Shown: one piece after another, positions 6,235 through 27,418 of the stretch
Position numbering within the stretch: the first letter of the stretch is position 1
Layout of the letters: each line of letters begins with the position of its first letter
Virus record (IMG/VR): IMGVR_UViG_2531839433_000005
Span: 1-49,376 of that record
Direction: 5' to 3' (one strand)
Source: a virus
Lineage: Duplodnaviria > Heunggongvirae > Uroviricota > Caudoviricetes
DNA: 49,376 nt
Notes under the pieces: generated by a model
Database searches by the model: none
Seen by the model: only the letters and a program-made list of their open reading frames with translations
What the model was told of the DNA's origin: nothing
Translations under genes and position numbers: made by a program

Positions 6235-6873
6235 TTAAATATCTTGTTGAATTTTAAAGCATACGCCCAATATGCAAGATAGATCATCCAGCATAATTGA
6301 AGGGTAGCGAGGATTCGTGGGGACTAAAAGAATATCCGGCCCTTCTATCTCCAGTTTACGAATGACAGGTGTTGTGGTCCCTTTGGGTAAGGCAAGGACA
6401 ATATTTCCTGGTTGTACGGTTCGATCGGGATCAACAAAAACTGTTGAACCATTTGGGATGGAAACTCCCCCACCAGATGTTGACATACTGTCACTCTCTA
6501 GAACAACTGCAAAGGTATTGGCCGGGATTTCTCCGACAAGCTGCACACAAGAGGTTATTGAGGAATTTTTCATATAATCACTCCAGCTTGCTGCCTGCTG
6601 AAGTGATAGTAGCGGAACCGTTTTTATCGGCGGTAAAGATAGATCAAGCGAATCACCTGTATTTAACTCTCCTCCATTAAGAAGCCAATTTTCGTTTACT
6701 TTCAATATCTTTGCCAGTGAACTTATGTAACGCGAGGACGGCGCTCCTCCACCGTTCATCCATTGACTTACGGAGCCTTTTGATGCGCCAGTGGCATTGA
6801 CAAGGTCTTTGCCTTTCAGGTTTAGCGCATGCATACGTTGGGTTATGCGTTCAGATATTGTTTGCTTGCTCAT
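6235..6873 (-). CDS. cI: CI-type prophage repressor (XRE HTH + S24 LexA-like peptidase domain)
   Basis: 212 aa; N-terminal HTH; C-terminal DSMS Ser motif and downstream Lys (VIRKL) as in LexA/CI autocleavage domains; divergent from a Cro-like gene. Confidence 0.85.
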   Translation of the reverse strand: MSKQTISERITQRMHALNLKGKDLVNATGASKGSVSQWMNGGGAPSSRYISSLAKILKVNENWLLNGGELNTGDSLDLSLPPIKTVPLLSLQQAASWSDYMKNSSITSCVQLVGEIPANTFAVVLESDSMSTSGGGVSIPNGSTVFVDPDRTVQPGNIVLALPKGTTTPVIRKLEIEGPDILLVPTNPRYPSIMLDDLSCILGVCFKIQQDI

Positions 6874-6964: not shown

Positions 6965-7195
6965 ATGAAAAAATCAGAAGTATTAGGCTATTTTGGCGGA
7001 GTTGTTAAAACAGCCGCAGCTCTAGGAACGTCAAAAACCACAGTCAGCATGTGGGGGGAAGAGGTTCCGTGGAAATGGGCGTTGCTAATTCAGGCAGTCA
7101 CTGCCGGGGCGCTCAAATATGAGTTACACATACCGACGGTTGTCATTCCCGGTTCTGATCATAATCCGCCTTCTAACCAAGGGGGGGATTCATGA
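6965..7195 (+). CDS. Cro-like small HTH regulator
   Basis: 76-aa ORF divergent from cI with GGAG RBS; resembles Rac-type YdaS/Cro proteins as recalled. Confidence 0.6.
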   Translation: MKKSEVLGYFGGVVKTAAALGTSKTTVSMWGEEVPWKWALLIQAVTAGALKYELHIPTVVIPGSDHNPPSNQGGDS

Positions 7196-7617
7196 AAATC
7201 AAGCATGAACACATCCGCATGGCGATGAATGCCTGGGCGCATCCGGACGGCGAGAAAGTACCGGCTGCAGAGATTACCAAAGCGTATTTCGAGCTGGGAA
7301 TGACGTTCCCGGAACTGTATGACGACAGCCATCCGGAAGCCCTGGCTCGCAATACCCAGAAAATTTTCCGCTGGGTAGAGAAAGACACCCCTGATGCAGT
7401 TGAAAAAATTCAGGCGTTGTTACCAGCGATCGAAAAGGCAATGCCACCTTTGCTGGTGGCCAGAATGCGCAGCCACAGTTCTGCTTATTTTCGGGAGCTG
7501 GTGGAGACGCGGGAGCGACTGGTGAGAGACGCTGATGATTTTGTCGCAGTGGCAATCGCCGGTTTCAATCAGATGAACCGCGGTGGCCCGGCGGGAAATG
7601 CCGTGGTGATGCACTAA
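7192..7617 (+). CDS. CII-like / YdaT-like regulator
   Basis: 141-aa ORF translationally coupled to cro (ATGA overlap); N-terminus MKIKHEHI.. resembles the Rac YdaT family as recalled. Confidence 0.5.
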   Translation: MKIKHEHIRMAMNAWAHPDGEKVPAAEITKAYFELGMTFPELYDDSHPEALARNTQKIFRWVEKDTPDAVEKIQALLPAIEKAMPPLLVARMRSHSSAYFRELVETRERLVRDADDFVAVAIAGFNQMNRGGPAGNAVVMH

Positions 7618-17330: not shown

Positions 17331-17406
17331 GGCCCTTTAGCTCAGTGGTGAGAGCGAGCGACTCATAATCGCCAGGTCGCTGGTTCAAATCCAGCAAGGG
17401 CCACCA
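17331..17406 (+). tRNA. tRNA with CAT anticodon (Ile2/Met type)
   Basis: 76 nt; acceptor GGCCCTT/AAGGGCC, D-arm TAGCTCAGTGG, anticodon loop CTCATAA, T-loop GGTTCAAATCC, 3' CCA; resembles E. coli ileX as recalled. Confidence 0.75.
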
Positions 17407-17407
17407 A

Positions 17408-17484
17408 CCGTCACCAGTTCATCAGGAAAGAGCGTCAACCCTTTAAGTTGAGTGTGCGAGGTTCGAGTCCCCGGTGGCGGTCCA
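17408..17484 (+). tRNA. Atypical tRNA-like element (possible anticodon TTT; may be a pseudo-tRNA)
   Basis: Acceptor CCGTCAC/GTGGCGG with one G-U pair, T-loop TTCGAGT, 3' TCCA; D-arm and anticodon loop (C at position 33) are non-canonical. Confidence 0.35.
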
Positions 17485-17486
17485 GT

Positions 17487-17562
<76 letters not shown>

Positions 17563-17565
17563 TAT

Positions 17566-17640
<75 letters not shown>

Positions 17641-19339: not shown

Positions 19340-19402
19340 TCGCCTGTAAGAGCAGAATATTGTTGAATCTAAGTAAGCGGCTCGTCAGAACCGTATTGAT
19401 AT

Positions 19403-20974
19403 TTACTGAGAGCTCAGATCAACTTTCCAGGGCAACAGATCGCGTACCCGGTTTGCCGGCCAGTCCTGGATATGTTCAATGACGTAGCGCAGCCACTTTT
19501 CTGGCTCCACATTGTTCAGACGGCATGTGCCGATCAGCGAGTACAACACCGCCGCATGTTCACCACCGCTGTCGGAACCCGCGAACATCCACTTTTTCCG
19601 GCCTACGGCCACTCCCCGTAAGGCGTTCTCTGCGATGTTGTTGTCGATTTCCACCCAGCCATTACTGCAGTACACGTTCAGTGCATCCCACTGTTTCAGC
19701 AGGTATGCGAACGCTTTTGCCGTATCTGAGTGACGCGACAGTGTTTTCATCTGTTGCTGTATCCAGTCATACAGTGACTGCATCAGTGGCGCGGCTCTGG
19801 TTTTTCTTGCCGCCAGACGCTGTTCTGCTGAACAGCCCCGGACCTCTGCCTCGATGGCATACAGTTCACCGATACGCTGCAGGGCTTCCGTGGTGATGTC
19901 GGTGGGCGCTCTTGCATGCACATCGTGGATTTTTCTCCGGGCATGAGCCATACACGCGGCTTCCGTTATTCTGCCGGATTCGTATAACGCCCGGTAACCA
20001 CCGTAAGCATCGGCCTGAAGCACACCGCTGTAACCGGCCAGGTGATTTTGTGGATGGATACCTTTCCGGTCCGGACTGTACGCGAACCAGACCGCCGGGG
20101 GCATCTGTGAACCGGCGTTACGGTCATCACGGACGTAGACCCACAGCCGGGCTGTCCGGGTTTTACCGCTGCCCGGCTCCTGGACCGGGACGGGGATATC
20201 ATCAGCATGGACTTTACCGGGCATCAGCACATACTGGCGCAGGACGTCATACAGCGGCTCCAGTAGTTCAGCAACGGCACCTGTCCAGCGCCCCAGTGTG
20301 GCACGGCTCAGCTCCACACCCTGACGGCGGTATATCTCTGACTGGCGGTATAACGGCAGATGGTCTGCATATTTTCCGGTGACGACATGGGCCAGGAGCC
20401 CCGCTCCGGCATAACTGCGTGCAATGGGTTTTGAAGGTACTGGTGCCTGCACGATATGGTCGCACCGACAACAGGCCAGTTTCGGACGTTGTGTTTCGAT
20501 AACCTTAAAGGCGCTGCTGATAAGCTCCAGTTGCTCTGACACATCACATCCCAGAGAACTGAGTTCACCACCACAGGCAGGACAGCATTCCTCTTCCGGC
20601 CGGATAACCCGGGTTTCACGGGGAAGTGAGGCCGGTAACGGTTTACGGGCTGAAGACTGGCGCAGGGCGGATGGCAGTACCGGGTCATATTGCTCACCCA
20701 GCGTTTCCGCCATTTCTTCCTGAAGTGCGCTGATTCGCTCCTGTGCTTCCTGTATCTGCCGTTCGGTTTTTGCACGAAGTTTTTCTGAGCTTTTACCGAA
20801 CTGCATACGTTGCAGTTTCGCAACCAGCGCCTTCAGCCGGTTGATTTCGGAAGCATAAGCCGCCACCCGCTGTGAGAGCAGGCGGTTGTATTCAGCCATC
20901 TGGCGGATGGTGTCCTGTTGCGTCTGCAACAGTGCCCGCAGGCGGGCGTTCTCATGAGCAAGTGAGGTGTCCAT
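19403..20974 (-). CDS. IS66-family transposase (TnpC/orfC)
   Basis: 523 aa; N-terminal coiled-coil/leucine zipper, CxxC zinc-finger-like motifs, DDE-type core as in IS66 transposases. Confidence 0.85.
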
Positions 20975-20993
20975 ATCCTCACTTTACAACGGG

Positions 20994-21341
20994 TTATATG
21001 CGGATTCCAGCGCGTTCCGTTCGTTTCGGGTGCTTCCAGTTGATACCTTCAAGAAGCATGGATAACTGAGCCGGAGTAAGGTGCACCTTGCCGTCACGGG
21101 TGACTGGCCAGACGAAGCGGCCCCGCTCCAGGCGTTTGGTGAAGAGGCACAGTCCGTCACTGTCAGCCCACAACACTTTTATCTGGTCACCCCGGCGTCC
21201 GCGGAAGATGAACAGGTGTCCGGAGAACGGGTCATCCTTCAGGACGTTCTGAACTTTTGATGCCAGGCCGTTAAAGCCATTTCGCATATCGGTGATACCT
21301 GCAACCAGCCAGATACGCGAACCTGCAGGGAGAGATATCAT
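20994..21341 (-). CDS. IS66 accessory protein TnpB (orfB)
   Basis: 115-aa ORF in the characteristic position, overlapping the orfA stop. Confidence 0.8.
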   Translation of the reverse strand: MISLPAGSRIWLVAGITDMRNGFNGLASKVQNVLKDDPFSGHLFIFRGRRGDQIKVLWADSDGLCLFTKRLERGRFVWPVTRDGKVHLTPAQLSMLLEGINWKHPKRTERAGIRI

Positions 21342-22018
21342 CAGTGGCTGCTCCCTTTTATTTCGCGGATAAGTGTCTGTAATAACGCCGGCGTCAGTTT
21401 ACCTTTAAGCCTGAGAGTTCCGGCCGGCAGAACCAGCTCACAACACAGACTGTCGGACGGTGTATTTATCTGCTCTGGTTCCTGTGCGGGGGCCGGGATT
21501 TTATTATCCGGCTCCGGCGTTAACGTCACGGGAAGCAGTGCCGGCATATTTTTTCCGGAAGGCAGCAGGCCACCTTTCCGGTATTGATGGCGCCAGTTGA
21601 AGAGCAGGTTATCGTTGATTCCGTTTTCCCGGGCGATCTGCGCCACACAGGCTCCGGGCTGCAGTGACTGCTCCACTAAGGCGATTTTAAACTCATAAGG
21701 GAAGTTGGGCCGCCGGGGACGTTTTTTTACCACGGGGGCTTCGGATATAACGGTGCTTTCAGGACGTACGACTGGTACCGTGGAAAATTGTCCGTAAAGG
21801 CAGGCATCAAGTTCCTGCTCCGACATGCCTGCGGGCAAAGGCCACGAAAGGCCAGCTCTCCGAAAGCGCACGAACATACTACAAACTGTTGATTTTGGTA
21901 CACCCAGGCGACGCCCGGCCACAACCCGGGGTAAATGTTCTTCAAAGTGAAGACGTAAAGCTTCAGTGATCCAGGTCCGGTGTTTCATACGATAGTGTCC
22001 ATTAAAAATGATGGACAT
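21341..22018 (-). CDS. IS66 accessory protein TnpA (orfA)
   Basis: 225-aa ORF at the upstream end of the IS; HTH-like N-terminus. Confidence 0.7.
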   Translation of the reverse strand: MSIIFNGHYRMKHRTWITEALRLHFEEHLPRVVAGRRLGVPKSTVCSMFVRFRRAGLSWPLPAGMSEQELDACLYGQFSTVPVVRPESTVISEAPVVKKRPRRPNFPYEFKIALVEQSLQPGACVAQIARENGINDNLLFNWRHQYRKGGLLPSGKNMPALLPVTLTPEPDNKIPAPAQEPEQINTPSDSLCCELVLPAGTLRLKGKLTPALLQTLIREIKGSSH

Positions 22019-22133
22019 TATTTTTGTAGAGCCGGAGGAAACAGACCAGACGGTTTAAATGAGCCGGTTACGAATCTAAATTTACTTTGAACAGTGGCCC
22101 GGATGGAAAGGGCATCTAAATAGGAGCAGAAAA

Positions 22134-22726: not shown

Positions 22727-23003
22727 TGTTAAAAAAGATTGCGGCATTACAGCAGCCCTTCACACTGAGTGGCTGCGATAATGTGAGAAATAAAAAACCG
22801 GCAGGGGAAATCCATTGAAGATTTGCCGGTGGCAAAAAGATGGCCATGCTTTCAACCTTAGTCGCAGGGTTACGGAGTGCAACTACGAATGCTGCCGGTA
22901 TATGGCTGAATGGCGTTTCAATGATGTACGTCATCTTATCTGTAAATGTTAATGATAAACGCTCTCATTTGTGCGGGTCCTTCCGGTGGGGTGGCCTGCC
23001 ACG

Positions 23004-23015
23004 GGGCGGAAGGCG
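23004..23015 (+). other. cosN: predicted 12-nt cohesive end (packaging nick site)
   Basis: Flanks ..TCCTTCCGGTG..CACG|GGGCGGAAGGCG|CGCGGGTTTTCGCTATTTATGAAAATTTTCCGG parallel the lambda cos region as recalled; the 12-mer differs from lambda GGGCGGCGACCT in its last six positions. Confidence 0.5.
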
Positions 23016-23175
23016 CGCGGGTTTTCGCTATTTATGAAAATTTTCCGGGGAAAATCATGTCGGTACTTCTCGAACATAACTATTTGTTTTTTCTAATATC
23101 GAATCCGTAAAAGGTCCGACATGAAAACGCCTAAAAAAGTCATTTTCGGGCACTTTCATGTCGGACCCTGTGTTT
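23016..23175 (+). promoter_or_regulatory. cosB-like region with three R-type repeats
   Basis: CATGTCGG at 23056..23063 and 23157..23164 and its reverse complement CCGACATG at 23116..23123, between cosN and nu1. Confidence 0.4.
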
Positions 23176-23191
23176 GTTGTGAGACTGTTTC

Positions 23192-23711
23192 ATGAAGGTT
23201 AATAAAAAGAAACTTGCCGAAATTTTCAACGTGGATCCGCGAACGATTGAACGCTGGCAGTCTCAGGGACTCCCTTGCGTCTCCGGAGGTGGTAAGGGCG
23301 TTGAATCTGTATTTGATACCTCCATGGCAATTCAGTGGTATGCGCAGAGGGAGGCTGATATCGAAAATGAAAAACTCCGTAAAGAGGTTGAGGATTTCAG
23401 GGCTGCCAGTGAGGCAGATCTCCAGCCTGGGACTATTGAGTACGAACGCCATCGACTTACGCGTGCGCAGGCTGACGCCCAGGAGCTGAAGAATGCCAGA
23501 GACTCCGCAGAAGTGGTGGAAACCGCATTCTGTACTTTCGTGCTGTCACGGATCGCAGGTGAAATTGCCAGTATTCTTGACGGGATCCCTCTCTCGGTAC
23601 AGCGGCGTTTTCCGGAACTGGAAAACCGACATGTTGATTTCCTGAAACGGGATATCATCAAAGCCATGAACAAAGCAGCCGCGCTGGATGAACTGATACC
23701 GGGGTTGCTGA

Positions 23712-23737
<26 letters not shown>
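23192..23737 (+). CDS. nu1: Terminase small subunit
   Basis: 181 aa; C-terminal two-thirds match lambda Nu1 as recalled, N-terminal DNA-binding part diverges. Confidence 0.9.

Positions 23738-27418
<3,681 letters not shown>

Follow-up and report, generated by a model that had tools for sequence, protein, structure and literature searches.

The window analysed here, a stretch of 49,376 nucleotides, corresponds to positions 57366-106741 of NZ_CP025859, and its middle 24 kb is 100% identical to the prophage of ETEC strain 504239 (NZ_CP025859) and of 5 other complete genomes. The genes follow the order Rac-type integrase, replication, Q, lysis, cos, head and tail genes, and tail fibres, with the cos region located where the lysis and head genes join, which is the expected place for a lambda-like cos. 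The features of this region are the following, in coordinates of the window.

22975-22981 (+): cosQ, GGGTCCT, packaging-termination signal; an exact match to the annotated cosQ of phage 21, also found in lambda
22982-23003 (+): cosQ-cosN spacer, TCCGGTGGGGTGGCCTGCCACG, 22 nt; diverged from lambda and 1 nt shorter
23004-23015 (+): cosN cohesive-end segment, GGGCGGAAGGCG; left half GGGCGG and the CG at both nick positions kept, predicted 12-nt 5' overhang
23016-23048 (+): I2 segment between cosN and cosB, lambda-type; 33/33 identical to lambda, 29/33 to phage 21
23053-23068 (+): R3, putative TerS binding site of the 21 type, AATCATGTCGGTACTT; homologous to phage 21 R3 (bp 50-65), 15/16 identical
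23077-23089 (-): I1, IHF-like site, AAACAAATAGTTA; one mismatch to WATCAANNNNTTR, at the position of phage 21 I1
23113-23128 (-): R2, inverted R element of the 21 type; matches the core and the extended motif
23154-23170 (+): R1, R element of the 21 type, TTTCATGTCGGACCCTG; matches the core and the extended motif
23192-23737 (+): nu1 (TerS), 181 amino acids, chimeric; Pfam Phage_Nu1, E = 1.8e-90
23712-25637 (+): gene A (TerL), 641 amino acids, lambda-type; Pfam GpA_ATPase and GpA_nuclease

Both nu1 and A are intact open reading frames. The nu1 product covers positions 1-164 of the 164 of the Phage_Nu1 profile (PF07471) with a score of 301 bits, the gathering cut-off being 30. Codons 1 to about 64 specify a winged helix-turn-helix domain of the 21 type, a transition follows at nucleotides 23386-23410, and the remainder, from about codon 74 to codon 181, is of the lambda type. 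An initial annotation of this DNA had described the N-terminal part of Nu1 as divergent from lambda and the C-terminal two-thirds as matching it, and both statements hold: residues 1-75 show 60% identity to lambda and 84% to phage 21 gp1, while past residue 70 there are 2 amino acid differences from lambda, and nucleotides 23411-23737 show 95.7% identity with lambda and 58.7% with phage 21. At positions 20 and 24 the protein has the E and S of phage 21 instead of the Q and E of lambda, and all 11 residues of the recognition helix agree with phage 21. In a comparison with PDB 7LWR, the sequence of which is that of phage 21 gp1 residues 1-54, 48 of the 54 residues are identical and four of the six differences sit in the wing, which in phage 21 has the sequence CASKGSKGIE. 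The fold of the Nu1 domain is covered by solved structures, namely those of the lambda domain (PDB 1J9I, 68 residues) and of the phage 21 domain with the identical helix (7LWR). The N-terminal region of TerL contacts TerS. Gene A shows 98.4% nucleotide identity to lambda between 23776 and 25637, and the TerS C-terminal domain and TerL are both lambda-type apart from gpA residues ~8-22, as a lambda-type TerS-TerL pairing calls for. That stretch at the start of gene A (window 23738-23775; lambda sequence VNRLRHFVRAGLRSL) is only 71% identical to lambda, compared with 98% for the rest of the gene; it falls in the N-terminal region of TerL, and the same divergent patch is present in Escherichia phage IdasGreatGrand.

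Sites that differ between lambda (J02459) and phage 21 (OL657228) were scored in a direct alignment by which of the two phages the window matches, with this outcome.

23016-23048 (I2): 4 matches to lambda, 0 to phage 21
23049-23385: 12 matches to lambda, 117 to phage 21
23386-23410 (mixed): 7 matches to lambda, 4 to phage 21
23411-25637: 745 matches to lambda, 21 to phage 21

The contrast between 23049-23385 and 23411-25637 has a Fisher p of 3e-109. A single breakpoint is best placed between 23403 and 23407, at about codon 71 of nu1, just past the DNA-binding domain as delimited by the 68-residue lambda construct. The recombination junction that the initial annotation had placed inside nu1 is supported by an abrupt switch between phage 21 and lambda. 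Only one junction had been proposed, however, and a second, located at 23048/23049 (chromosome bp 45-49), had been overlooked; given this second border, the 21-type material forms a cassette of ~355 bp. As read from the alignment, recombination has set this cassette, made up of cosB and the TerS winged-helix domain, into lambda-type surroundings: I2 on its left is lambda-type, and so, on its right, are TerL and the core and C-terminus of TerS. Neither the N-terminal domain of Nu1 nor cos is identical to lambda in the alignments with lambda and phage 21, as had been supposed. The identity to phage 21 is 80% for cosB and 91.5% for the 5' part of nu1, values at which the cassette is not recent phage 21 DNA; the lambda-type parts reach 96-98% identity with lambda. 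We considered whether convergence or gradual divergence could have produced the mosaic and rejected both, as identity switches abruptly and reciprocally.

The phage 21 record (OL657228) annotates R3 at bp 50-65, I1 at 74-86, an inverted R2 at 107-122, and R1 at 150-166. The corresponding R cores of the window all read CATGTCGG and occupy 23056-23063 (+), 23116-23123 (-), and 23157-23164 (+), so the three R elements reported earlier at 23056, 23116 (inverted), and 23157 had been placed exactly. Taken alone the 8-mer carries little weight, with 5 matches in the window and 1.9 expected. The extended motif TCATGTCGGNMC occurs at these three R sites only, with 0.03 matches expected and 0 of 100 shuffles reaching 3. 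Over bp 55-63, R3 has the same sequence as phage 21, TGTCGGTAC, with a G at both bp 56 and bp 59, and the distance between cosN and R3 is that of both lambda and phage 21. I1 is the sole IHF-like match of its kind within cosB. By motif and position, the three 21-type R elements and the IHF-like site make up a predicted tripartite cosB. A fourth CATGTCGG core, inverted, was observed at window 23626-23633 (-) in the lambda-derived part of nu1; lambda has the same at bp 623-630. It recalls the accessory rR2 site of N15 and is probably a chance match to the 21-type R core.

Lambda and phage 21 discriminate more than 1,000-fold against each other's DNA through the interaction of TerS with cosB, the key determinants being TerS residues 20 and 24 and R3 bp 56 and 59, with the cosN-R3 distance critical (PMC4669245); the roles of the 21-type determinants are also drawn from PMC9026076. 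E20 and S24, the phage 21 helix, the 21-type bases at R3 bp 56 and 59 within the conserved bp 55-63, and the right distance from cosN are all found here, and from these we infer that the terminase has a packaging specificity of the 21 type, which supports the phage-21-like switch suggested in the initial annotation. Since the recognition pair, cosB and the TerS winged-helix domain, is of the 21 type, the enzyme should select DNA with a 21-type cosB. The cassette could instead define a specificity related to that of phage 21 and yet distinct from it, in which the changes in the wing and in cosB block cross-packaging. This finds some support in the 6 differences among the 54 domain residues and the clustering of four of them in the wing, in the 80% identity of cosB, where R3 bp 54 is A and not G as in phage 21 and R2 is shifted by 1 bp, and in the clean separation of the two sub-variants into lineages in IMG/VR. 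We nevertheless regard it as unlikely, considering that the recognition helix does not differ from the phage 21 one and E20 and S24 are of the 21 type, that R3 bp 55-63 are identical and the lambda equivalent of this segment contacts the domain, and that all three R cores take the form that phage 21 itself has in R2 and R1. With a 21-type specificity as the preferred reading, full cross-compatibility with phage 21 is still not guaranteed, because of the six substitutions in the Nu1 domain and the divergence of cosB. Packaging would proceed as in lambda. A TerS dimer, aided by an IHF-induced bend at I1, would bind R3, R2, and R1; the cosB-bound TerS, its C-terminus still pairing with the lambda-type TerL, would anchor TerL, and cosN would be nicked 12 bp apart. 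The terminase would remain on the cosB end and then dock on the prohead, and at termination the next cos would be recognised through cosQ, cosN, and I2.

Aligned to the joined lambda ends, the 12-mer GGGCGGAAGGCG differs from the lambda cohesive end GGGCGGCGACCT at bp 7, 8, 9, 10, and 12, while bp 11 (C) is the same. The initial annotation had predicted a cohesive end unlike lambda in its last six positions; the variant 12-mer is present, but five of the six positions differ. On its left the 12-mer is flanked by ACG as in lambda, and on its right by CGCGGGTTTTCGCTATTTATGAAAATTTTCCGG, which is identical to lambda in 33 of 33 positions. The context CACG/GGGCGGAAGGCG/CGCGGG keeps the left half and the CG flanks that are described as conserved, as is cosQ (PMC4669245). 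The distance from cosQ to cosN is 22 nt, compared with 23 nt in both lambda and phage 21. All the parts of a lambda-like cos are present, that is cosQ, the cosN left half with its CG flanks, I2, which is needed for termination (PMC4669245), and a complex cosB. Natural differences at cosN bp 7-12 are common, and this half tolerates mutation with minimal effect because sequence matters little to the cosB-anchored TerL when it nicks the bottom strand (PMC4669245). Such variants occur in N15 and phiD326 (bp 9 and 12) and in Gifsy-1 (bp 8, 9, and 11) (PMC4669245), and mEp213 and LLS have the cohesive end GGGCGGCGCGCT (PMC12315714). In all five, as in the AAGGCG allele of the window, variation is confined to bp 7-12 and GGGCGG, the CG flanks, and cosQ are kept. 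With five changed positions AAGGCG exceeds any cosN variant named in these two reports (PMC4669245, PMC12315714), yet it is frequent in sequence databases. It fits the published rule that cosN bp 7-12 are free to vary, and the variant cohesive end is an independent polymorphism outside the specificity switch. Another right half, AGACCT, is found in phage PhiR70_1, the cohesive end of which is GGGCGGAGACCT. A literature search with the exact 12-mer GGGCGGAAGGCG returned an unrelated plant paper as its sole match. Natural cosN variation is reportedly surveyed by Vahanian et al. 2017 (Virology 509:140).

Given the right half AAGGCG, the virion ends should carry a 12-nt overhang reading 5'-GGGCGGAAGGCG. 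The sequence at the bottom-strand nick, CGCGCG, could in principle shift that nick by 2 nt and yield an overhang of another length, as ...AAGGCGCGCGGG contains a pair of CG dinucleotides in phase, against a single one in lambda, a consideration drawn by inference only. We hold this to be very improbable: the bottom nick is set by measurement from the cosB-bound TerS and is insensitive to bp 7-12 (PMC4669245, PMC9026076), and the interval from cosN to R3 equals that of lambda and phage 21. We keep to the 12-nt end, and consider it likely, at a probability of roughly 0.85, that a lambda-like prophage residing in an ETEC chromosome has its cos site and terminase operon here, as a lambda/21 chimera with a variant cosN.

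A close known relative in design is lambda-21 hy51, which has cosB-21 and a TerS gene with a 5' half from phage 21 gene 1 and a 3' half from Nu1, and which is a 21-specific helper (PMC4669245). This viable laboratory hybrid from the Feiss laboratory has the same architecture, likewise with lambda TerL. It differs in that it came from a lambda x phage 21 cross, while the cassette described here belongs to a diverged 21-type lineage and is accompanied by a lambda-type I2 and a variant cosN. Phage 21 itself (OL657228; 7LWR) shares the tripartite organisation of cosB, in which R elements of the CATGTCGG type and I1 occupy equivalent places, as well as the helix and E20/S24, but has its own TerS C-terminal domain and TerL (59-66% nucleotide identity), the lambda cosN, four differences in I2, and another wing. 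Escherichia phage IdasGreatGrand (PP925829), which its GenBank record gives as isolated on E. coli, has the same cosB, chimeric nu1, and gene A start patch, and is 99% identical over window 23016-23800; it differs from the window in its cosN, which is that of lambda (GGGCGGCGACCT), and in its cosQ-cosN spacer, which has the standard 23 nt. Escherichia phages PhiR46_1 (PV340565) and YDC107_1 (CP025712) carry the variant cohesive end; they have an identical 48-nt cosN region with GGGCGGAAGGCG, and their sequences are deposited in prophage order. PhiR46_1 is unlike the window in having, by alignment, a lambda-type cosB and Nu1 N-terminus and in its 23-nt cosQ spacer; its TerL is lambda-type. YDC107_1 also differs by a lambda-type cosB and Nu1 N-terminus, as judged by tblastn identity only. 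Thus each of the two modules, the chimeric one in IdasGreatGrand and the AAGGCG cosN in PhiR46_1, exists in a deposited phage genome, while AAGGCG together with a 21-type cosB was found in no isolated or deposited phage of the collection. A literature search found no publication describing the PhiR phages.

Of 5,426 complete E. coli genomes, 372 contain at least 80% of the segment 22940-23200, ETEC H10407 and E24377A being two of them. Among 120 lambda-like cos sites listed from IMG/VR, the right half of cosN is CGACCT in 114, AAGGCG in 5, and CGACCG in 1, and an IMG/VR scan for the variant located AAGGCG at at least 51 lambda-like cos sites or contigs. Most of the AAGGCG sites listed have a lambda-type cosB and many different spacers; 14 have a 21-type cosB, 13 of them with the 22-nt spacer of the window. 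This spacer haplotype in turn is almost always associated in IMG/VR with AAGGCG and a 21-type cosB. In IMG/VR, AAGGCG also occurs with another 22-nt spacer haplotype, TCTGATGACCTGAGCTCTCACG, which is unrelated to the first (for example at locus L222), and the 1-nt-shorter spacing must therefore have arisen or spread more than once. Across 146 distinct IMG/VR haplotypes, the R3 class and the recognition helix are perfectly linked, and the cosB sub-variant of the window is always joined to a lambda-type TerS C-terminus (25/25, IMG/VR). No TerL residue co-varied with the cosN allele as a fixed difference between 3 variant and 33 canonical full-length TerL sequences. When one genome per species was scanned, the variant cosN appeared only in Escherichia sp. 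E1V33, with a lambda-type cosB.

The AAGGCG allele might define a cohesive-end incompatibility group, an idea we think doubtful and put forward as speculation. If it were true, tandem polylysogens or mixed concatemers could give rise to genomes begun at one cosN type and ended at the other, whose ends would mismatch at 5 of the 12 positions and fail to cyclise; this would reduce gene flow, or hijacking, among lambda-like phages that otherwise package each other's DNA; and it could account for the coexistence of the alleles with only two single-step variants, CGACCG (one contig) and AGACCT (PhiR70_1).

Further R3 classes were observed at lambda-like cos sites of IMG/VR (loci L092, L102, L132, L220, and relatives) in which cosN and I2 are conserved. 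One is GATCCATGTCCGG; others in the same group of loci are AATCAGATCCG, with the helix VRTITAWQSQG, and GCATGTCAG, with the helix IRTIDRWQTQG, and one has GGGGACTGGTGG. Their sequences suggest more packaging specificities than the characterised lambda, 21, and N15 types.

The packaging module, a lambda/21 chimera whose variant cohesive end is a common one, is real and ordinary, and nothing new in kind. It provides a natural example of a specificity pair, cosB and the TerS DNA-binding domain, that moves as one small cassette with a junction at the TerS domain boundary, and of a cosN right half that is free to vary. Predictions of termini for lambda-like prophages of E. coli, ETEC included, should allow for the variant end, which is also relevant to lambda-based cos and packaging tools applied to such phages. 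Beyond annotation its importance is small.

The copy in the window shows several lesions. The tail tip gene J (window 38497-41975) is frameshifted and consists of two overlapping frames, 38497-39192 and 39153-41975, and cro (6965-7208) is frameshifted according to the annotation of the identical RefSeq record. An IS66-family element, named ISCro1 in that record, occupies 19373-22071, where it separates the lysis genes from cos and lies 930 bp upstream of the latter, and is flanked by an 8-bp target duplication, GAATCTAA, at 19365-19372 and 22072-22079; as the insertion is intergenic, it disrupts no obvious gene. On account of the two frameshifts and the insertion, this prophage copy may be unable to yield infectious particles unaided. 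The same three lesions would suit a reading in which cos is a decaying relic of a defective prophage, inactivated by the changed cosN right half and the shorter cosQ spacer. That reading is very improbable in view of the 12-mer being unchanged on at least 18 different spacer/cosB backgrounds and in phage PhiR46_1, of the existence of the second 22-nt spacer haplotype, and of the intact state of cosQ, the cosN left half, the CG flanks, I2, and the R3 core, which are reported to be selectively constrained, and of the nu1 and A frames. Two other observations concern genes elsewhere in the prophage. A CI-like repressor of 212 amino acids (HTH and an S24 peptidase-like C-terminus) is encoded by a complete open frame at window 6235-6873 (-), of which the identical RefSeq record annotates only the C-terminal 113 amino acids, as a LexA family protein. 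The annotation of the same record places tRNA genes for Ile, Thr, and Gly at window 17331-17640, just downstream of the Q antiterminator gene.
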